Position numbers and translations under genes: made by a program. 64,000 nucleotides of DNA from an uncultured Chloroflexia bacterium (GTDB lineage: Bacteria; Chloroflexota; Limnocylindria; Limnocylindrales; CSP1-4). This document shows positions 11,884 through 52,091 of this stretch, piece after piece. Each line of letters opens with the position of its first letter. The stretch's first letter is position 1. The notes under the pieces are model-generated. The model ran no database searches, was not told the origin of the DNA, and saw only the letters and a program-made list of their open reading frames with translations. The stretch is from positions 640,306 to 704,305 of the forward strand of contig CAWHRB010000001.1 in assembly GCA_963831715.1 (NCBI GenBank), written 5' to 3'.

Positions 11884-12798
11884 ATGCTCACCCATCGACC
11901 GGCGGCGGATGTCGAGGACCTCTCGACCGCGGCCGGCCTGATGTCCGCCGCGTGGCAAGCCGACGCCCCGCACGTCGCCGAGACGCCAGCGGCGATCGAG
12001 TGGTGGTACACGGTGACGTACCCGGATCCGCTCGGCGACCACCTCCGGCTGTGGTTCGACGACGGTCGACCGGTGGCCTGGACGTGGCACGAACCGCCGG
12101 AGCTCGAGTGCCACGTCTGGACGGGCGATGCACACACCGACGCGCTGCTCTTCGCGGCGATCATCCACGCGGTCGACGCCGACGCAGGCGAGGGCGAGCT
12201 GGCGGCGTTCGCGGCAGATGCCGATGCCGCGGCGATCGACGTCCTGCGCGAACGTGGCTTCGAGCCCGCCGGTCGCGTCCTGACGCAGTGGCAGCGTCGG
12301 GTCGATGACGGCGACCTCCGGCGCGTGGTGATGCCGGACGGCTATCGGATCCGCGGGCTCCGCGGGCCGGACGAATTCCCAGCCCGCGTCGACGTGCACC
12401 GCGCGGCGTTCCCGACGTCGCGCCTGACGGCCGAGAAGTACGAGCGACTCCTGACCATGCCGCACTATCGGTTCGACGACGACCTCGTCGTCGAGGCGCC
12501 GGACGGGTCGCTGGCCGCCTTCGCCCTGACCTGGTACGACGCGGTCGGGCGGGTCGGCGAACTCGAGCCGGTCGGGACGCATCCGGACCATCAGCGGCAG
12601 GGCTTGTCGCGGGCGATCGTCACGGCCGGGGTCAGCCGATTGTTCGAGCGCGGCGCACGGACGGTGCAGGTCTACTCCGATGCCACTGAAGCGCCGGCCG
12701 AGGCGCTCTACGCGGCGGTGGGCTTCCGCCGCCGGGCGATCCATCGCCGGTACACCATCCGATCGCCGCGTCCCGCGGACGCTACGATCGACGCATGA
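11884..12798 (+). CDS. GNAT family N-acetyltransferase
   Basis: Acetyl-CoA binding motif QRQGLSRAIV…; ATGA overlap with next gene. Confidence 0.7.
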   Translation: MLTHRPAADVEDLSTAAGLMSAAWQADAPHVAETPAAIEWWYTVTYPDPLGDHLRLWFDDGRPVAWTWHEPPELECHVWTGDAHTDALLFAAIIHAVDADAGEGELAAFAADADAAAIDVLRERGFEPAGRVLTQWQRRVDDGDLRRVVMPDGYRIRGLRGPDEFPARVDVHRAAFPTSRLTAEKYERLLTMPHYRFDDDLVVEAPDGSLAAFALTWYDAVGRVGELEPVGTHPDHQRQGLSRAIVTAGVSRLFERGARTVQVYSDATEAPAEALYAAVGFRRRAIHRRYTIRSPRPADATIDA

Positions 12799-14204
12799 CC
12801 GACGATCGCGAGGGGTCCCGCATCGAACGCGATTCGATGGGCGAGATGGCCGTCCCCGCCGACGCCCTGTACGGGGCGTCGACCCAACGGGCCGTCCTCA
12901 ACTTCCCGATCTCCGGCCAGCGCTTCCCGCGCCGGTTCATCCGGGCGCTTGCGCTGATCAAGCTGGCTGCGGCGGACACCAACGGCGAGCTCGGTCTCCT
13001 CGACGCCGGGGTCGCGCGGGCGATCGCCGCCGCCGCCGCGACCGTCGCGGACGGCGACCACGACGACCAGTTCCCGATCGATATCTACCAGACGGGATCG
13101 GGCACCTCGACCAACACGAACATGAACGAGGTCGTGGCCCACCTCGCGACTGCCCGGCTCGGCTCGGATCGGCGCGTCCATCCCAACGACGACGTCAATC
13201 GCTGTCAGAGCTCCAACGACGACATCCCGACCGCGCTCCAGCTCAGCGCCGCGCTGGCGATCGAGGAGGCGCTCATCCCGGCGTTGGTCCACCTCCAGCA
13301 GGCTCTCGCCGCGAAGGCCGAGGAGTTCTGGCCTGTCGTCAAGACCGGTCGGACCCATCTCCAGGACGCGACGCCGATCCGGCTCGGCCAGGAGTTCCAG
13401 GGCTATGCCGGCCAGATCGAGGAGGCGATCCGGCGGGTGCAGGGGGCACGAGACGAGCTGCTCACGGTGCCACTCGGCGGGACGGCGGTCGGAACCGGCA
13501 TCAACGCCCATCCCGAGTTCGCCGCCCGAACGTGTGCCCGGCTCACCGAACTGCTGACACTGCCCGTCCGTGAAGCCCCGAACCACTTCCACGCGCAGGC
13601 CACGCTCGACGTCCCGGTGGCGGCGCACGGTGCCATCCGGACGACCGCGCTCGGCCTGTGGAAGATCGCGTCGGACATCCGGCTGATGGGGATGGGTCCG
13701 CGCGCGGGGATCGGGGAGCTGGCACTGCCCGAGACACAGCCCGGCTCGTCGATCATGCCCGGCAAGGTGAACCCAGTGATCATCGAGAGCCTGACGATGG
13801 TCACGGCCCGCGTCGTCGGCAACGACACCACGATCGCGTTCGCCCAGACCGGCTCGCTCCTGGAGCTCAACGTGATGCTGCCGGTGACGGCCGTAGCGCT
13901 GCTCGAATCGATCGAGCTGCTCGCCGCCGCGGCGAGGAACTTCGCCGACCGGACGGTCAGCGGACTCTCGGCGACGGATCGCGGCCCCGCGCTGGTCGAG
14001 CAGGGGCTGATGCTGGCGACCGCGCTCGCGCCGGTGATCGGCTACGACGAGGCGGCGGCCCTGGCCAAGGAAGCGCTCAAGACGGGTCGGACGATCCGCG
14101 AGCTGGCGCTCGAGCGGGGCATGGCCGCCGACGATCTCGATCGTCTGCTAGACCCGGCCTCGATGACCGAGCCTGGTCTCGGGAGTGGCTCGGCCGGCGG
14201 CTGA
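12795..14204 (+). CDS. Class II fumarate hydratase / aspartate ammonia-lyase family enzyme
   Basis: GSSIMPGKVNP signature, QTGSGTSTNTNMNEV; features of both FumC and AspA, so exact activity unresolved. Confidence 0.8.
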   Translation: MTDDREGSRIERDSMGEMAVPADALYGASTQRAVLNFPISGQRFPRRFIRALALIKLAAADTNGELGLLDAGVARAIAAAAATVADGDHDDQFPIDIYQTGSGTSTNTNMNEVVAHLATARLGSDRRVHPNDDVNRCQSSNDDIPTALQLSAALAIEEALIPALVHLQQALAAKAEEFWPVVKTGRTHLQDATPIRLGQEFQGYAGQIEEAIRRVQGARDELLTVPLGGTAVGTGINAHPEFAARTCARLTELLTLPVREAPNHFHAQATLDVPVAAHGAIRTTALGLWKIASDIRLMGMGPRAGIGELALPETQPGSSIMPGKVNPVIIESLTMVTARVVGNDTTIAFAQTGSLLELNVMLPVTAVALLESIELLAAAARNFADRTVSGLSATDRGPALVEQGLMLATALAPVIGYDEAAALAKEALKTGRTIRELALERGMAADDLDRLLDPASMTEPGLGSGSAGG

Positions 14205-14207
14205 TCC

Positions 14208-15612
14208 TTACGGCGCTTGATCCAGCAGGCGTTCCGCGGCGTCGATCCCCGACAACCACGCTCCGTGGACCGTCGATGGGAAGCGCAGGCTGGTCGCCTC
14301 GCCGGCCAGCGTCAGCCGAGGGCCGAGCGGTTCGGCGAGTGCGGCCCGGTCCTCCGGCGACGACCCGACCGCCAGGAAGGAATAGGCGCCCCGGGCAAGC
14401 AGATCGAGCCCCCAGCGCGTGACCACCGTGGCCGACGGACGTTGGTTCGACTCGGCGACCACGGCGCGATAGGCGGTGAGTGCCTCGCTGACGACGGCGT
14501 CGTCATCGAGCCCCTCCAGACGCCGTGCCTCGGCCCCCGTCGCGAACCCGACGACGATCGGCTCTCCTGTGACCGGTTGGAGGTCGACCCACTCGCGGAA
14601 CGTCGGCTCACCGACTCGACCGAGCCAGTCGGCGCCACCCGGGAAATCACGCTCGGGAAAGCGCAACGCGACCTTCAGGAAGCTGCCCATGCCGAGCCTC
14701 CCGATCGCGTCGGCGACCGCCCCCGGCAGGGCGGGCCGGAACGTGACGTCGCCGGCCTTCAGGACGCCCAGCGGGAGCGTGACGATCGCCCGATCCGCGG
14801 ACATCCGCCCGCCGTCGGTCGTCACCTCGACTTTCGCATCCGTCGCCTCGATCGACATCACCCGCTGTCCGAGGCGGATGTCGAGCGTGGCGGCGATCGG
14901 GTCGAGGACGGAGCGATAGCCGCCGTCGAGCATGACCCAAAGGCCCTCGAGCGAATCGCCATCGAGCAGCGTTCGGACCGAAAGCTCGGTCAGGTCGGCG
15001 GCGTGGTCGGCGCCGATCTCGACGTCGGCCGCCCAGCGGAGGTATCGGTCGAGGAGCGCTGAAATCGACGTCGGTCGGGGCCGGGCCGGCAGCCTGGGTC
15101 GCGCGCGCCAGGGTGGCCGCCACGGGTTCGTCGGCAGGATCGGATCCGGCGTGCCGTGTGGCGTCGCCCAGGATGGCCTGGTACCTGGTCCACAGCGGCT
15201 CCTCGTCACGCCAGGGCATGCGTCGCCCATCCTCGTCGTACGTCGCGAACCGGTCGAACGAGGTCCGCGTGAACCGGGTACCGGCCGCTCGAGCGAGCGG
15301 CACGAGCGGGTTGCCGGTGGTGCCGTGGATCCATGACGCGCCGAGATCGAGCGGAGGGCCCAGCACGTCCGACGTCCAGGCACGTCCGCCGATCCGGTCG
15401 CGCGCCTCGAGAACCGTGACGGTCTGCCCGGCCTCGGTCAGGCGGCGTGCCGCCCCAAGACCGGCCGCGCCGGCGCCGATCACGAGCGACGTGCCGGGGA
15501 CGGGATCCTGTCTCCGTGGCGCCGCGCATCCCGCGAGGGCGAGCGCGCCCGAGCCCAGGACCGCTGCGCACAGGAACGAACGTCGGTCCAGCGTGACGTG
15601 CGAGCGGGACGT
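14208..15612 (-). pseudogene. Tat-signal lipoprotein flavin-containing amine oxidase (MAO family), frameshift ~15060-15100
   Basis: TTG/ATG start with MTSRSHVTLDRRSFL…ALAGC (Tat + lipobox), VIGAGAAGLGAARRLTEAGQTVTVLEARDRIGGR, C-terminal half (…VTLPLGVLKAG…) in another frame; possibly sequencing error. Confidence 0.6.
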
Positions 15613-16304
15613 CAAGCCCGCCTCGGTGGCAGCGAGGGCACGACCGCGGAGATGGCGAGGGCGATCCAGGCGCCGCCGGCGACGGCCCATGCGAGCGGGG
15701 TCGGCAGGAGCATGACGGCCCCGGCGATGAGCACGATCTCCCCGATCGGGTGATCCCGGGCGCTCCAGCGGACGAGGCCCACCGCGACCGTGGCGATCGC
15801 CGCCAGGGACTGGCACGCGCCGGTGATGGCGCCATACGGGCCGCCGATGGCGGCGACCAGCAGCGCCGCGATCCACAGGCCATACGCGGCGAGGGCCATG
15901 AGCAGGGCGCCATCCGTGCCGCGAGGCGGCTCGAGCCCCGAGCGCCGAGCCACGGCGATCACGACCACGGCCATCGCGAACGCGCCCACGATGCCGATGG
16001 GGATGGTCTCGAGAAGGAAGCCCGGCCAGTCGGGCGCCGTGGGCTGGAGGGCACTCGCCAACCCGCAGACGATCAATGCGGCGCCACCTACGATCGCGGC
16101 GACCCATGGCACCCGCCTTGGTGTGCGGGGATGCAGCCGGGCGTCGAGTGCTCCACGGGCGAGATCCATCCGCATCCGGCGATCGAGCGGCCGCGCCTCG
16201 AGGAGGGCGCGCATCTCCGGCTCGTACCGGTCGCGCCAGTCTCGTGGATACAGCCGCAACCAGCCGGCGCCGTTGATGCCCTTCGCTCGATCCCTCAGAC
16301 GCAT
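15612..16304 (-). CDS. Polytopic membrane protein with N-terminal PadR-partner-like cytoplasmic motif (WLRLYPRDWRDRYEPEM)
   Basis: 4-5 predicted TM helices; N-terminal motif common in membrane proteins encoded downstream of PadR regulators. Confidence 0.5.
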   Translation of the reverse strand: MRLRDRAKGINGAGWLRLYPRDWRDRYEPEMRALLEARPLDRRMRMDLARGALDARLHPRTPRRVPWVAAIVGGAALIVCGLASALQPTAPDWPGFLLETIPIGIVGAFAMAVVVIAVARRSGLEPPRGTDGALLMALAAYGLWIAALLVAAIGGPYGAITGACQSLAAIATVAVGLVRWSARDHPIGEIVLIAGAVMLLPTPLAWAVAGGAWIALAISAVVPSLPPRRA

Positions 16305-16954
16305 CCGTTCTCGACCAGCGGCAGGATCACCCCCGGCTGGCCGAGCGCGACGGGCAACGGCCCGAGGGTGACGGTGCTTGTGTCGACGAACAGTACTCCG
16401 CGCTCATCGACGCGCACGGCGAACCGATCCATGCCTCGCTCCGCCGGGCCGTAGCGCAAGCCGTCGACCTTGATGCCGAGGCGGTCGTAGCGCGACTGGT
16501 GGCACGGGCAACGCATCCAGAAGTCCTCGAGGCACGGGTTCGGGCGGCACCCCAGGTGCGGGCAGATCTGCGACAGGGCACGCACGTTGAGCGCCCGTCC
16601 ATCACCCGTGGGGTCCTCGCCCGGCGACCAGCCACCGCGAGCCGGATCGACGATGACGATAAAACCCTTGGCAGCGGCCACGTACGCCGGAAAGCCTTCT
16701 CCAAACGGCAATGCCGCGTTCGCGGCGAGCAGCTCCGGGTACGTCCCGACCCGAACGACACCGGTGGCATTCCGGCCCGCCGACCAGGCAAAGCCGGCCG
16801 TGCCCGCGAGGGCCTCGATCGCCCACAGCCCGACCGCCGTCCCGAGGGCACGCCGCAGGAGCGTCCGCCGCGACAACCCGGCTGTGACCGCGTCTCGCCT
16901 GGCCCGGATGGCGGGGCCGGCGATGGTCGTGCTCGGCACCGGCTCGTGACTCAC
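16295..16954 (-). CDS. Tat-exported Rieske [2Fe-2S] protein
   Basis: SRRTLLRRALGTAVGL (Tat motif + TM), CPHLGC…CPCHQS Rieske boxes; GTG start overlaps PadR TGA. Confidence 0.75.
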   Translation of the reverse strand: MSHEPVPSTTIAGPAIRARRDAVTAGLSRRTLLRRALGTAVGLWAIEALAGTAGFAWSAGRNATGVVRVGTYPELLAANAALPFGEGFPAYVAAAKGFIVIVDPARGGWSPGEDPTGDGRALNVRALSQICPHLGCRPNPCLEDFWMRCPCHQSRYDRLGIKVDGLRYGPAERGMDRFAVRVDERGVLFVDTSTVTLGPLPVALGQPGVILPLVENGCV

Positions 16955-17274
16955 GGCTCCGTGCGACCCAGACGTCGCAGGGCGGTCCTGGTGAAGCCGC
17001 GCATGCTCTCGAGTTGCGCCCGGAGGGTCGTCGCCCCGAGCGTCGTGAGGCGATACGGCCGGCGCCGGTCCACCGGCTCGAGTGCTTCGATGAGGCCGCG
17101 CCCCTCGAGCCGCGCGAGCGCCGCATACAGCGTGCCCGGGCCGAGCGGCGACCCCGAGATGTCCTCGACATCGGTCATGATCGCGTAGCCGTGCTTGGGC
17201 CCCTCGCTGAGCGACAGCAGGATGTACAGCGACGGCTCGGCGAACCGCCCGAACTCCGGGATCCCACCCGTCAC
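16951..17274 (-). CDS. PadR family transcriptional regulator
   Basis: PadR winged-helix sequence (…SLYILLSLSEGPKHGYAIM…GTLYAALARLE…). Confidence 0.85.
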   Translation of the reverse strand: MTGGIPEFGRFAEPSLYILLSLSEGPKHGYAIMTDVEDISGSPLGPGTLYAALARLEGRGLIEALEPVDRRRPYRLTTLGATTLRAQLESMRGFTRTALRRLGRTEP

Positions 17275-17299
17275 ATCGCACCTCTGTATCGCGGACCGC

Positions 17300-17318
17300 T
17301 ATATCGCCACACGATATA
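17300..17318. promoter_or_regulatory. Palindrome TATATCG-CCACA-CGATATA upstream of padR (candidate PadR operator)
   Basis: Perfect 7-bp inverted repeat 26-44 nt upstream of padR start in the divergent intergenic region. Confidence 0.45.
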
Positions 17319-17400
17319 CTCCCCGGCTCGACGCGTGTCAAGCGCGGCAGTGGTGCCAAGGTTCGCGGGGCACGGGGCGCCACCGGTACAATCCGGCGCG

Positions 17401-18180
17401 ATGACCGATACCCGTCTTTGGGATCGCGCCGCCGTCGCCGTCGTCGCCGAGGGCAGACGGTTCCCGGCTGTCACGTCCCTACAGGCCGGCCTGCCGACCG
17501 TCGAGGAGCTCTTCGACTTCATGCGTGACGCCGAGCTGCGCTTCGCCACGTTGCGGATGCGGATCGTCGAGCGTGCGGTCACGGCGCGCGGAGAGGAAGC
17601 CACCCAACTCGACGTGATGCTCCGCCACCCTGGCCTCGCGAAGGTCACGACGAGCCGGCCCGGCGAGGAGGTCGGCGGACCCTACGAGATCTGGATCACC
17701 GACGGCGAGATCGTGCGCACCTATGTCGCGGCCCACAAGCTCGGGACGCAACGACCGATCCGCAACCGACCGCGCGGACTGGACGACCCTGACTTCCCGG
17801 GCATGTCCCGCATCTACGACCCGCTGACGCCGCTCCCGATGGAAACGCTGCCGGATACGTTCGTGCATCCGGCGGGCTTCTGCCAGAACGTGCTCTCGAC
17901 CGGCCGCAGCCGGATCACCGGGAGTGCCGCCATCGCCGGCCGAGCGACGATCCACCTCCGCTGCGACCACCCGCGGACCATCGAGCTTCCAGCCGACCGG
18001 CCCGACCACGCGATCGAGATCGACGTCGACCGCGACACGGGCGTGATCGTGCGACTGGTCCAGACCATCGGTGGCGCCGTCACCCGCGATGCCGTCGTCA
18101 GCGTGCTGGAGCCGGACGCCAAGCTCCCGCCGACAGCCTTCGAGTTCGTCTTCCCGACCGGGACGACGATGCTGTTCTAG
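17401..18180 (+). CDS. Hypothetical protein
   Basis: 259 aa from ATG 17401; no family recognised. Confidence 0.45.
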   Translation: MTDTRLWDRAAVAVVAEGRRFPAVTSLQAGLPTVEELFDFMRDAELRFATLRMRIVERAVTARGEEATQLDVMLRHPGLAKVTTSRPGEEVGGPYEIWITDGEIVRTYVAAHKLGTQRPIRNRPRGLDDPDFPGMSRIYDPLTPLPMETLPDTFVHPAGFCQNVLSTGRSRITGSAAIAGRATIHLRCDHPRTIELPADRPDHAIEIDVDRDTGVIVRLVQTIGGAVTRDAVVSVLEPDAKLPPTAFEFVFPTGTTMLF

Positions 18181-18427
18181 GACCTCGACCAGACCCCGGT
18201 CGCCACAGGCGGGACTCCCTTCCTCACGCTCGAACCGGCGCGTATAGTCGGCACAGCCGTTACCAACCCAGCGTCATCCAGGCATCCTCGCAATCCGCGC
18301 AAGGCGCACCGCAGCGACAGCCCAGCGGTAGCAGCCGACGCAGGATCGGGCCGTGGTAGGGACCCGATCAGCCGGGCGACCTCCGCCACCCCCGGACGGA
18401 GGCTCCGCTCAGGTGAGGGAGGTATCG

Positions 18428-20113
18428 ATGACCCAGGCGCGTTCGAACGACGATGTCATCCAGCAGGACATCGCCGACCTGCACAAGCTCGGCTACGCGC
18501 AGGAGCTGCTCCGCTCGATGGGCGGCTTCAGCAACTTCGCCATCAGCTTCAGCATCATCAGCATCCTGACCGGTGCGGTCATCCTGTACGACTACGGCCT
18601 GGCCTGGGCCGGCACGGCGGCCGTCCTTATCGGCTGGCCGCTGGTCACGATCTTCGTGGTCGCGATCGCCGCGTCCATGGCCGAGATCGCGTCGGCCTAT
18701 CCGACAGCCGGCGGCCTGTACTACTGGGCCAGCCGGATGAAGAACAAGGAATGGGGCTGGTGGACGGCCTGGCTGAACCTGATCGGCCAGTTCGCGATCG
18801 TCGCGGGCATCAACTACGCGGCCGCGGCATTCCTCAACGCCACACTCATCACGCCGCTCCTGAGCAACGTCGGGATCACGTACGGCAATACCACCGAGCT
18901 GATCCCCGGGTTGCTCAACGGTCAGCTGGTGACGATGGGCATCCTCATGCTCATCGAGCTCGCCCTGAATATCGCCGGCATCAACCTGGTCGCCCTGCTC
19001 AATCAGGTGAGCGTCTGGTGGCACATCGTCATCGTCGCAGCGATCGTCGTCCTGGTCTTCCTGGCTGGGAAGCCCGACGCATCGGGCCTGACGTTGTTCG
19101 CCGTCCAGCCGCAGGACGTCGCGGGGAGCTGGGCGAACAACCTCGGGTTCGTCAACTTCAACTACGGTGCCGCGATCACCTACATACCGTTGCTGGCGTT
19201 CTTCTTCTCGCTCCTCCAGGCCAACTGGACCTACACCGGATACGACGCATCGGCCCATGTGGCTGAGGAGACCGTCGGCGCCCGCGTCGCCAGTGCGTGG
19301 GGCATCTTTCTCTCCGTGGCCGTCTCCGCGGCCGTCGGCTACATCTTCCTCCTCGCCCTGACGACGCACCTGCCCGACCTATCGACGCTCTTCCCGGCAG
19401 ACCTCGCGACTGCCGACGCGGCGACGTACAGCCAGTACTACTTCGGTGGCGGTGCGGCCGTCATCGACATCCTCGTCTACAACCTCGGATCACTGGGCAA
19501 CCTGCTCTCCGCCGGCATCGCCATCGCGATGGCCTTCTGCGGGCTCTCGTCGGTCGCATCCGCCGGGCGGATGCTGTTCGCCTTCAGCCGCGACGACGGC
19601 CTGCCCGGCTCGGGTTGGCTGAAGAAGGTCTCGCGTCGGTATCGGACGCCGGCGAACTCGCTGACCGCCATCGTGATCGTCGCCTGGCTGTTCACGGTGG
19701 CCGCATTCTGGGTCGGCGCACAGGGTGGCCCCGGTGGCGGCGGCATCGCGATCGTGATCATCACCGCCATCAGCACGATCTTCCTGTACGCGGCCTACGG
19801 CGTCGTGATCTTCCTCGGGGCCACGACGCAAGGCTGGCTTTCGGAACGAGTCTGGAGCCTCGGCCGGTGGTCCAAGCCGATCGCCTGGGTCGCGGTCGCC
19901 TGGATCCTCGTGCTCCTGGTCCTGTTCTCCTTCCCGACCTCGGGCAACATCTCGTGGCCGTTCATGGTCGGGACCGTGGTGCTCCTCCTGATCTACTACT
20001 TCGGGTACGCGAAGTCTCGATTCAAGGGCCCACGATCCATGGGCGACAGCGCCGAGCTGACCGAGATCGAGCGCGAGTTCGAGCATGCGGCCGAGGAGGT
20101 CGCGACGACCTGA
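18428..20113 (+). CDS. APC-superfamily amino acid/amine permease
   Basis: 12-TM APC permease sequence; 247-nt leader upstream. Confidence 0.85.
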   Translation: MTQARSNDDVIQQDIADLHKLGYAQELLRSMGGFSNFAISFSIISILTGAVILYDYGLAWAGTAAVLIGWPLVTIFVVAIAASMAEIASAYPTAGGLYYWASRMKNKEWGWWTAWLNLIGQFAIVAGINYAAAAFLNATLITPLLSNVGITYGNTTELIPGLLNGQLVTMGILMLIELALNIAGINLVALLNQVSVWWHIVIVAAIVVLVFLAGKPDASGLTLFAVQPQDVAGSWANNLGFVNFNYGAAITYIPLLAFFFSLLQANWTYTGYDASAHVAEETVGARVASAWGIFLSVAVSAAVGYIFLLALTTHLPDLSTLFPADLATADAATYSQYYFGGGAAVIDILVYNLGSLGNLLSAGIAIAMAFCGLSSVASAGRMLFAFSRDDGLPGSGWLKKVSRRYRTPANSLTAIVIVAWLFTVAAFWVGAQGGPGGGGIAIVIITAISTIFLYAAYGVVIFLGATTQGWLSERVWSLGRWSKPIAWVAVAWILVLLVLFSFPTSGNISWPFMVGTVVLLLIYYFGYAKSRFKGPRSMGDSAELTEIEREFEHAAEEVATT

Positions 20114-47979: not shown

Positions 47980-48095
47980 AGTGTCCCTTATCTCGCAGGA
48001 GGACCTGCCCGGATTTGGCACCTTGCCGACCTCGCGTCGGTAGGTTGTCGTGGCATCGACGGGCCGGTCCCTCCGCCACTCTGGATAAGCACTTC
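47980..48095 (-). ncRNA. SAM-I (S-box) riboswitch in metH leader
   Basis: Minus-strand sequence CUUAUCCAGAGUGGCGGAGGGACCGGCCCGUCGAUGCC…CAACC…GGUGCCAAAUCCGGGCAGG…GAGAUAAG matches S-box conserved core. Confidence 0.8.
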
Positions 48096-50549: not shown

Positions 50550-52091
50550 TCAGACCTCGGAGTCGGGCATCGACGCCTTGCGCCGGATCATGAACTCGAG
50601 CAGCTCCTCGTCGAGCGCCTGGTCGAGTGGCGGGGCCTCGTACTCGGCGAGCATCCGCTTCCAGATCGCGTTGGCGCGCTGCGCCGCGTCGAGCCCGCCA
50701 TCCTCGCTCCACTGCTCGAACGAGTTGTTGTCGGCCACCTCGGAGCGGTAGAACGCGGTCTCGAAGTTGGCGAGCGTGTGCGCCGTGCCGAGGAAATGCT
50801 GACCCGGCGGGTTCGCCCGGATGGCGTCGAGGGCCTGGCCGTTCTCGGACAGGTCGACGCCCTTCACGAAGACGGCCATCATCCCGCACTGGTCGGCGTC
50901 GAGGATGAACTTCTCGTACCCGACGGTCAGCCCGCCCTCGAGCCAGCCGGCCGCGTGGAGCACGAAGTTCACGCCGCCGAGCACCGTCGGCTGGAGGGTC
51001 GCGGCACTCTCGTAGGCGGCCTGCGCGTCGGGGATCTTGGAGGCGCACAACGAGCCGCCCGAGCGGAACGGCACGCCGAGCCGCCGGGCGAGCGACGCCA
51101 TCGTGTACAGCACCAGTGCCGGTTCCGGCGTCCCGAACGTCGGCGCTCCCGATTGCATCGACATCGAGCTCGCGAAGCTGCCGAGGACGACCGGCGCGCC
51201 CGGCCGGACGAGTTGCACGAAGGTCATCCCGGCGAGCGCCTCGGCGAGGGTCTGGGCGGCGACGCCCGCGGCGGTCACGGGTGCCATCGCCCCGGCCAGG
51301 ATGAACGGCGTCAGCAGCGTCGCCTGGTTGGCTTCGGCGTAGGCCCGCGCCGCCCCGAGCATCGTCGCGTCCCAGACCAGCGGCGAGTTCGCGTTGATCA
51401 GCGACAGGACGACCGCATGGTCGTCGAGGTAGTCGGCGCCGAACAGGATCCGCGCCATCTCGACGGTGTCGCGCGCCCGCTCGGGCGCCGTGACGGAGCC
51501 CATGAACGGCTTGTCCGAGAAGCGCATGTGCGAATAGACCATGTCGAGGTGGCGCTTGTTGACCGGGACGTCGACCGGCTCGCAGACCGTCCCGCCGCTG
51601 TGGTGGAGGTGCGGCGAGAGGTAGGTCAGCTTCACGAGGTTGCGGAAGTCCTCGATCGTGCCGTAGCGGCGGCCGCGGTCGAGGTCGCGCACGAACGGCG
51701 AGCCGTAGTTCGGCGCGAAGACCGTGTGCGGTCCGCCGATCTCGACGTTGTTCGCCTCGTTGCGGGCGTACTGGGTGAACTGGCGTGGGGCGGTCGCCTG
51801 GACGATCGTGCGGCACATGCCGCGCGGGAAGCGGACGAGCTCGCCGTCCACATCGGCACCCGCCTCGTGGAGCGATCGGACGGCCTCCGGATCGCCGCGG
51901 AACACGACGCCGACCTCCTCAAGGATGGTGTCCGCGTTGTGCTCGATGAGCGACAGGCCCTCCTCGTCGAGCACCTCGAACGGCGCCAGCGTCCGCGTCA
52001 GGAACGGCGTCCGTTCGAGCTGCGCGTGGAGACGCGCCGCCCGCCGTGCGTCGCGGCCACCACTGCGCCGCGTCGGCACCGGATCGCTCAT
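50550..52091 (-). CDS. MttB-superfamily (non-pyrrolysine) quaternary-amine:corrinoid methyltransferase (MtgB-like, glycine betaine type likely)
   Basis: 513-aa TIM-barrel MttB family sequence with no internal stop (no Pyl codon needed). Confidence 0.8.
   Translation of the reverse strand: MSDPVPTRRSGGRDARRAARLHAQLERTPFLTRTLAPFEVLDEEGLSLIEHNADTILEEVGVVFRGDPEAVRSLHEAGADVDGELVRFPRGMCRTIVQATAPRQFTQYARNEANNVEIGGPHTVFAPNYGSPFVRDLDRGRRYGTIEDFRNLVKLTYLSPHLHHSGGTVCEPVDVPVNKRHLDMVYSHMRFSDKPFMGSVTAPERARDTVEMARILFGADYLDDHAVVLSLINANSPLVWDATMLGAARAYAEANQATLLTPFILAGAMAPVTAAGVAAQTLAEALAGMTFVQLVRPGAPVVLGSFASSMSMQSGAPTFGTPEPALVLYTMASLARRLGVPFRSGGSLCASKIPDAQAAYESAATLQPTVLGGVNFVLHAAGWLEGGLTVGYEKFILDADQCGMMAVFVKGVDLSENGQALDAIRANPPGQHFLGTAHTLANFETAFYRSEVADNNSFEQWSEDGGLDAAQRANAIWKRMLAEYEAPPLDQALDEELLEFMIRRKASMPDSEV

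Follow-up and report, generated by a model that had tools for sequence, protein, structure and literature searches.

A conserved PadR-headed Rieske/membrane-protein module with interchangeable genes for predicted exported redox enzymes in Candidatus Limnocylindria

A four-gene operon lies on the minus strand of a 64,000-nucleotide stretch of DNA from an uncultured Chloroflexota bacterium (GenBank assembly GCA_963831715.1, contig CAWHRB010000001.1, positions 640,306 to 704,305; the whole stretch analysed is hereafter called the window) and encodes a PadR-family regulator, a Rieske [2Fe-2S] protein, a membrane protein with six transmembrane (6-TM) helices and a flavin amine oxidase. We favour, with moderate confidence, the reading that the conserved unit is a Rieske/membrane-protein module autoregulated by PadR, to which a varying set of exported redox enzymes is attached, the oxidase being optional. 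The original prediction, made from the letters of the window, had cast the Rieske protein as the dedicated electron acceptor of the oxidase and had assigned the DNA to actinobacteria. The organism belongs to the Chloroflexota, class Candidatus (Ca.) Limnocylindria, and the comparative data make a dedicated oxidase-Rieske system unlikely: the Rieske/membrane-protein pair occurs without an oxidase in 60 of 63 species-level loci (~95%), oxidase orthologues occur without a Rieske gene both in the same genomic slot (locus L097) and elsewhere in the genome (L014), and the Rieske protein is closely paralogous to the cytochrome-b-linked subunit of complex III. More distant homologues of the oxidase, which had been taken for a monoamine oxidase (MAO)-family enzyme bearing a twin-arginine translocation (Tat) signal, likewise stand alone without a Rieske partner, one of the outcomes named beforehand as counting against the pairing.

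The comparison set consisted of ~70 related soil Chloroflexota, for which neighbourhoods of Rieske homologues on long contigs were pooled with a one-genome-per-species scan and mapped by tblastn. The region has a G+C content of ~70-74%, and the four minus-strand genes, with their control elements, are laid out as follows (window coordinates):

17336-17341, minus strand: -35-like hexamer TTGACA of the operon promoter, read from the sequence
17300-17318, unstranded: perfect palindrome TATATCG-N5-CGATATA, candidate PadR operator, found by pattern search
17285-17303, unstranded: degenerate second copy of the palindrome with 2 mismatches, found by pattern search
16951-17274, minus strand: padR, a standalone winged-helix PadR-family regulator of 107 amino acids (aa) (PF03551)
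16295-16954, minus strand: bc-type Rieske [2Fe-2S] protein of the CPCHQSRY type, 219 aa, predicted to be anchored by its Tat signal (PF00355, NF050121)
15612-16304, minus strand: 6-TM membrane protein of 230 aa, with no Pfam or NCBIfam family
15064-15615, minus strand: N-terminal part of the flavin amine oxidase, in the frame before the frameshift (PF01593)
15060-15063, minus strand: +1 frameshift in the oxidase, located by tblastn and DNA alignment against the orthologue in L001, the closest relative
14208-15062, minus strand: C-terminal part of the flavin amine oxidase, with substrate and FAD domains (PF01593)

Stops and starts overlap along the whole operon. GTG serves as the start of the Rieske gene and shares the tetranucleotide GTGA with the padR stop; the ATG of the membrane-protein gene falls 10 nt within the Rieske gene; and the oxidase gene, which runs from a TTG at 15615 to 14208, shares TTGA with the stop of the membrane-protein gene. 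The translationally coupled, PadR-headed operon that had been proposed is borne out by these overlaps and by a conserved operator-like palindrome in front of it, and the identities given to the Rieske protein (PF00355) and to the polytopic membrane protein (six TM helices) also hold. The padR product matches PF03551 with 51.6 bits (E 9.6e-14, cut-off 27), which places it in the PadR family; it is 98% identical in L001, with a ratio of non-synonymous to synonymous substitution rates (dN/dS) of 0.02.

The operon occupies a single locus that is syntenic across Limnocylindria. One strand carries the genes for a glutamine-synthetase-family ligase, an APC permease and a 260-aa protein; next come a variable slot and a convergent aspartase/fumarase-like lyase gene. 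The ligase, syntenic as well, is found just beyond the permease. In the window these flanks are:

18353-20113, plus strand: APC-superfamily amino acid/amine permease, TIGR00907-like, from profile matches
17395-18180, plus strand: divergent conserved protein of ~260 aa, one flank of the slot, with no family match
12795-14204, plus strand: aspartate ammonia-lyase/class II fumarase-like gene, convergent, the other flank of the slot, from profile matches

The lyase is conserved beside the operon in ~60 loci, and the divergent ~260-aa protein is kept in nearly all syntenic loci, including L097, from which the PadR-Rieske module is missing. Within the slot, the PadR-Rieske-membrane protein core is present in ~60 of 63 species-level loci of this Rieske type, and the bare trio is the commonest architecture (24 loci). 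What accompanies the trio differs among species. Among the 66 loci of the CPCHQSRY type (hereafter Q-type) that were scored, a Cu/Zn superoxide dismutase (SOD; SodC), confirmed by PF00080, is encoded in ~23 (L029:8330-11735 and ~22 others, such as L030, L038, L042, L045, L049 and L059), in the upstream position, where this signal-peptide-bearing enzyme is the first operon gene downstream of the palindrome. A cupredoxin lipoprotein gene is found downstream, as the last gene, in 10, and the amine oxidase in 6. The species-level genome scan gave the oxidase in only three of 63 loci, and counting all sources it recurs at the locus in ~10 genomes, so the expected co-occurrence of oxidase and Rieske genes in related genomes does exist. 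A further optional gene encodes a second membrane protein, which shares the N-terminal domain of the first; it often directly follows padR and in some loci sits between padR and the Rieske gene. Judging from the predicted products, the slot collects exported copper and redox enzymes. Four short contigs carrying a Limnocylindria-type locus (L027, L056, L058 and L077; Rieske identity 62-73%) are deposited as Patescibacteria, Saccharimonadales, Methylomirabilota and Verrucomicrobiia and are probably mis-binned.

Regulation by PadR is suggested by the DNA in front of the operon. Upstream of padR, the hexamer TTGACA is followed by a 17-nt spacer and TATATC, a promoter-like element that a consensus scanner missed because its -10 part ends in C, and the same cTTGACA-N17-TATAT layout recurs before the first operon gene in most related loci. 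The palindrome overlaps the -10 element; its exact form occurs once in the 64-kb window against a chance expectation of 0.01, and the degenerate copy overlaps it by 4 nt. Exact copies were found in 55 related loci, one per locus except for two loci with two, always directly before the gene that opens the operon; where SodC is present, that gene is the one encoding it. The palindrome is absent from the loci of the cytochrome-b-linked Rieske paralogue. We consider it a putative PadR operator, and because it is conserved before the first operon gene in 55 loci we infer that PadR controls the operon.

The membrane protein is the least familiar part of the core. Pfam and NCBIfam scans at permissive thresholds gave no match for it or for its 43 relatives, nor for the second membrane protein or the divergent 260-aa protein; it is restricted to the lineage, and all 483 matches to it are annotated as hypothetical. 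In an AlphaFold2 (AF2) model (pLDDT 84.7), N-terminal helices at residues 13-18, 21-37 and 42-57 precede the six TM helices. This cytoplasmic three-helix domain opens with WLRLYPRDWRDRYEPEM; it is common to the second PadR-adjacent membrane protein (hhalign probability 99%), and at least 733 cluster representatives, mostly of 220-260 aa, carry it N-terminally, in agreement with the earlier suggestion that the opening helix is typical of PadR partner proteins. Two outward-facing motifs, PDWPG and GGPYG, are invariant. We rejected the idea of a degenerate cytochrome b or subunit IV, raised by the resemblance of the PDWPG loop to PEWY (hhalign probability <1%). One relative, P0415 (355 aa), joins the 6-TM protein to the cupredoxin in a single open reading frame (ORF) through the cupredoxin lipoprotein signal, either as a true fusion or as an indel artefact, and an apparent Rieske-6TM fusion, P0493 (446 aa), proved to be an artefact with out-of-frame stretches.

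HAAS-PadR-like winged helix-turn-helix dyads, which occur in 6TM, 4TM and 2TM versions, have been suggested to offer an alternative to two-component systems (Ravi, Aravind and co-workers, mSystems 2024, PMC11237479). The present module shares with them a standalone PadR beside a membrane protein with a helical cytoplasmic N-domain and an uncharacterised multi-TM part, an arrangement seen in ~60 loci, and it would fit their proposed logic, in which the membrane protein senses a signal and controls PadR. Unlike in these dyads, the Rieske gene is wedged between the genes of the regulator and of its membrane partner, and the window locus is without Psp, Lia or Toastrack components. The N-domain matches none of the HAAS-linked models DUF1700, DUF1129 and DUF1048, up to E 5 across the 43 family members; fold searches returned generic helix bundles only and no HAAS structure, and the likeness of the three-helix plus multi-TM layout to HAAS is one of form in the AF2 model, with no evident GxP kink motif. 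The module resembles a HAAS-PadR dyad in how it would work, and we do not class it as a member.

The Rieske protein matches PF00355 above the cut-off (29.7 bits). Its nearest NCBIfam models are actinobacterial QcrA, which is the best, PetC and AioB, all below their own cut-offs, and the same three families supply its best matches in the PDB. CPHLGC and CPCHQS are invariant in 28 orthologues, which gives the protein the cluster boxes and disulfide cysteines of the bc type; the leader SRRTLLRR, the full CPCHQSRY and the extra cysteines C141 and C218 are also invariant in the orthologues. A hydrophobic helix follows the Tat-type SRRTLLRR and is likewise conserved, from which Tat export and anchoring by the uncleaved signal helix are predicted. 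All 62 CPCHQSRY loci have the PadR/membrane-protein context and none contains a cytochrome b gene, and all 16 loci with CPCHGSRY have a cytochrome b context. Identity between Q-type and complex III-type proteins is 56-60% (mean 56%), conservation of the Tat/TM anchor is 0.57 between the two types versus 0.60 within the Q-type, and strictly type-specific residues are limited to three, all in the cluster loops (R137K, D144N and Q153G). Sister genomes carry the second Rieske copy on the same contig, ~120 kb from the orthologous locus; the example L070 encodes a cytochrome b6-like protein, a subunit IV-like protein, the CPCHGSRY Rieske protein and a cytochrome c-cupredoxin fusion, and is a genuine complex III locus. 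By sequence, the window Rieske protein is a duplicate of the Rieske subunit of complex III. We initially took Gln153, beside the His ligand, as a sign of lost partnership with cytochrome b, and withdrew this since actinobacterial QcrA carries the same CPCHQS, so that Gln is compatible with a cytochrome b partner. The L070 complex III operon itself (L070:6524-13191, same contig as L015) is preceded, with a 4-nt overlap, by a gene for a 655-aa GltD-like FAD/NAD(P) and multi-4Fe-4S protein and followed by a Kelch-repeat membrane protein; the translational coupling of an Fe-S flavoprotein to cytochrome b is unusual.

Alternative Rieske subunits of bc and b6f complexes exist, for example PetC2 and PetC3 of Synechocystis. 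Like these, the window protein is a second, diverged Rieske copy, encoded apart from cytochrome b and separately regulated, and it keeps the cluster motifs, the disulfide cysteines and the Tat-signal anchor. Unlike them, it is always co-translated with a 6-TM protein under a leading padR, often in the company of SodC or a cupredoxin; its N-tail and neck have diverged from those of the respiratory copy, and its incorporation with cytochrome b is putative. Arsenite oxidase AioAB offers another comparison. It too has an extracytoplasmic bc-type Rieske subunit with a Tat signal (AioB is a weak sequence match), and electrons pass from the catalytic subunit to the Rieske subunit and on to a cupredoxin or cytochrome c; its molybdopterin partner is obligately co-inherited, whereas the Q-type Rieske protein is without a catalytic partner in most genomes.

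The oxidase adds one more ordinary member to a known family. PF01593 matches both halves (74 bits and 174 bits, the C-terminal part with E 1.3e-50), and the family hallmarks are in place across the once-broken frame: the GxGxxG site VIGAGAAG and the active-site Lys in GSFLKV, which is invariant in the orthologues. The proposed flavin amine oxidase identity stands; the proposed MAO-family likeness, with NicA2 as the model, does not, the closest solved relatives being LSD1/2 and polyamine oxidases (PAO), matched over nearly the full length with E 1e-45 to 1e-34. With the polyamine oxidases and LSD1/LSD2 the protein shares the GxGxxG FAD site and the conserved Lys; it differs from them in being bacterial and in its predicted Tat export and lipid anchoring. 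Its leader consists of the Tat-type motif DRRSFL, a hydrophobic stretch and the predicted lipobox LAGC, which is indeed present with Cys30; at least 90% of orthologues keep this Cys. Conservation of motif and lipobox extends through the orthologues to the stand-alone ones. Twin-arginine motifs are, as had been stated, present on both redox proteins, DRRSFL and the Rieske SRRTLLRR each being conserved. Export of both proteins is predicted from these leaders.

The single frameshift reported for the oxidase was confirmed. The intact L001 orthologue has 468 aa, and relative to it the window holds one extra base at 15060-15063 (GATTTCAGCG versus GATCCTGCG), aligned as GATTTCAGCG against GATCCT-GCG, with a tblastn frame switch between 15064 and 15059. 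The N-terminal part is 92% identical to L001 (dN/dS 0.10) and the C-terminal part 91% (dN/dS 0.17). Many genes in L002, L003, L044, L051, L095 and L096 are split into two to four same-strand pieces, which indicates a high indel error rate in the long-read metagenome-assembled genome (MAG) collection from which the window also seems to come. An assembly error is the more likely cause, because dN/dS is low on both sides, there is no second lesion, the neighbouring genes are all intact over the ~12 kb compared and sister contigs are split by indels; the extra base, a T, also falls at a short T run. A very recent genuine inactivation, making the oxidase a fresh pseudogene in a lineage that is losing an accessory gene, is a less likely cause that we still take seriously, as a single +1 indel does split the ORF and the clade has more often lost the oxidase than kept it; such an inactivation would be compatible with the explanation we prefer. 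Those losses are clean, with only ~20-60 bp left between the membrane-protein and lyase genes in oxidase-free relatives. A scan of third-position G+C and open frames for frameshift density was discarded, as it confused gene junctions with frameshifts and missed the known one.

The oxidase gene has no fixed position and either follows the membrane-protein gene or precedes the operator. In L013, L095 and L096 its orthologues (56-58% identity) are upstream of padR with the operator palindrome in between, which leaves the oxidase outside the controlled unit in three of the six oxidase-bearing loci scored. The L097 oxidase (54-57% identity) occupies the same slot together with an AhpD-type gene, in the absence of PadR, Rieske and membrane-protein genes; this gene, directly upstream (L097:6323-8377), encodes an AhpD/CMD-type peroxidase-related enzyme (TIGR01926, 82.8 bits). 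The L014 orthologue, at 53% identity, is the one found elsewhere in its genome. As background we drew 80 distant homologues (31-42% identity) from a metagenome scan with the oxidase alignment, whose conserved patterns were so generic that it gave only homologues of at most 42% identity. None of the 80 has a Rieske gene, PadR or cupredoxin nearby, and about half carry an RR motif. Divergence of the oxidase tracks that of the flanking genes, consistent with a gene that is long established at the locus and has undergone many losses.

Based on these results, the explanation we prefer runs as follows. The padR, Rieske and 6-TM genes would share one promoter, with a palindromic operator lying across its -10 region, and PadR would repress its own operon. 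The three-helix N-domain of the membrane protein would be the PadR-partner end of a signalling pair of the HAAS-PadR kind and would relay to PadR a signal from the membrane or from outside the cytoplasm. Most likely, the Rieske protein would be either a conditionally expressed alternative subunit or a membrane-bound redox partner or sensor acting with the 6-TM protein. Exported redox enzymes would be collected in the slot according to species (Cu/Zn superoxide dismutase, cupredoxin lipoprotein and, in a minority, the oxidase), and the oxidase would be cargo or passenger rather than the reason for the existence of the Rieske protein. It is probably a Tat-exported, lipid-anchored surface enzyme of the polyamine-oxidase type that uses O2. 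An O2-using amine or polyamine oxidase is favoured because of its place in the PAO/LSD clade and the neighbouring permease and ligase genes; it may oxidise extracellular amines, feeding the permease, a possible functional partner, and the glutamine-synthetase-like ligase in nitrogen scavenging. In a survey of the superfamily, Tat-bearing flavin amine oxidoreductases without an adjacent cytochrome c were mostly fast with O2, with one exception, and a Tat leader by itself did not predict dehydrogenase function (PMC12224317). Cytochrome c genes are absent from the operon and its flanks and were seen only in the complex III paralogue locus.

Several points weigh against this explanation. Among orthologues of at least 54% identity, all those with a context that was read sit in the slot, directly flanking or replacing the PadR-Rieske-membrane protein block. 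This non-random placement, together with divergence that tracks the flanks, implies a functional connection of some sort with the locus; translational coupling of the oxidase gene to the membrane-protein gene is moreover seen in the window's clade. An electron-transfer chain outside the cytoplasm would also account for a cargo of SOD, cupredoxin and oxidase. Conservation between the Rieske protein and its complex III paralogue does not extend to the cytoplasmic N-tail and the neck, which weakens the alternative-subunit idea, and the membrane protein has no recognisable family and does not match the HAAS Pfam models. The O2 reactivity of the oxidase is a prediction by analogy, and any partner assigned to the Rieske protein is putative, drawn from sequence comparison.

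A more ambitious reading, which we regard as possible but rather improbable, turns the trio into a three-part sensor. The [2Fe-2S] cluster of the Rieske protein on the outer face of the membrane would report redox state or oxidative stress through the N-domain of the 6-TM protein and so release PadR, with SOD, cupredoxin and oxidase as the regulated cargo. The Rieske gene does lie between the regulator and its presumed membrane partner, with overlaps on both sides, in a trio that is invariant while the cargo varies, and SodC stands downstream of the operator throughout. The N-domain is found widely as the N-terminal module in small multi-TM proteins, the outward-facing PDWPG and GGPYG motifs could touch the Rieske head, and HAAS-PadR dyads are proposed to act in a like manner (PMC11237479). 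However, an extracytoplasmic Fe-S sensor is not known, 24 loci have no cargo at all, and some loci place the second membrane protein between padR and the Rieske gene. The Rieske protein also retains all features of a working electron carrier, with three fixed differences from the respiratory copy. An undescribed three-component Fe-S switch over exported redox enzymes, of which a flavin-Rieske-cupredoxin amine-dehydrogenase chain would be a narrower variant, is a tentative proposal of similarly low probability.

The chain from a lipid-anchored amine dehydrogenase through the Rieske protein to a cupredoxin or the respiratory chain was conceived by analogy with NicA2/Pnao and CycN, in which a PF01593 flavoenzyme with a Tat leader shares an operon with a small exported redox protein (PMC9396064, PMC12224317). 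Here the neighbour is a Rieske protein and not a Sec-exported cytochrome c, the oxidase falls in the PAO/LSD clade and outside those related to NicA2, and its linkage to a Rieske gene is found in a small minority of relatives and is breakable. The chain does account for the Tat-type leaders of both proteins, which would bring them to the same membrane face, for the TTGA overlap that implies co-expression with the Rieske gene in the window's clade, for the recurrence of the oxidase beside the module in ~10 genomes and for the clustering of oxidase, Rieske and cupredoxin genes in L013. The best predictor of dehydrogenase function published for the superfamily is an acceptor gene in the same operon, and slow reaction with O2 is on record for at least one Tat-bearing member that lacks a cytochrome c and whose oxidant is unidentified (PMC12224317). 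Set against this are the ~95% of species with the Rieske/membrane-protein pair and no oxidase, the Rieske-free oxidases of L097 and L014, and the three of six scored loci with the oxidase outside the operator-controlled unit. In addition, the Tat-lipoprotein leader is a family trait independent of a Rieske neighbour, the PAO/LSD clade has no known dehydrogenase, and in L097 the pairing with a peroxidase-related gene hints at H2O2 production. A flavin-to-Rieske chain is attractive in L013, yet the phyletic pattern does not require one, and we consider it very unlikely.

Two RNA-level features lie elsewhere in the window, outside the operon:

47985-48091, minus strand: S-adenosylmethionine (SAM) riboswitch (RF00162, 69 bits)
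50951-51050, minus strand: borderline match to Rfam PYLIS_3, the mttB pyrrolysine insertion element (38.4 bits against a gathering threshold of 38)

The second of these probably marks a gene of the MttB methyltransferase family.

Literature searches on PadR with Rieske proteins and on Rieske proteins in Limnocylindria turned up no such system, and we regard the PadR/Rieske/6-TM module, with its swappable cargo, as a novel form both of the PadR-membrane protein dyads and of the alternative Rieske subunits. It is a conserved and so far unannotated module of Ca. Limnocylindria, a very abundant, uncultured soil lineage, and it ties a spare complex III Rieske subunit to PadR and to a family-less 6-TM protein, with exported redox cargo that can be exchanged. 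Should the oxidase after all feed the Rieske protein, this would add a new class of acceptor to the revised picture of oxidases and dehydrogenases among flavin amine oxidoreductases. Whether the Rieske protein acts as an alternative subunit or as a sensor bears on how Rieske/cytochrome b complexes are remodelled under stress, and also on what pairs of PadR and membrane proteins sense.

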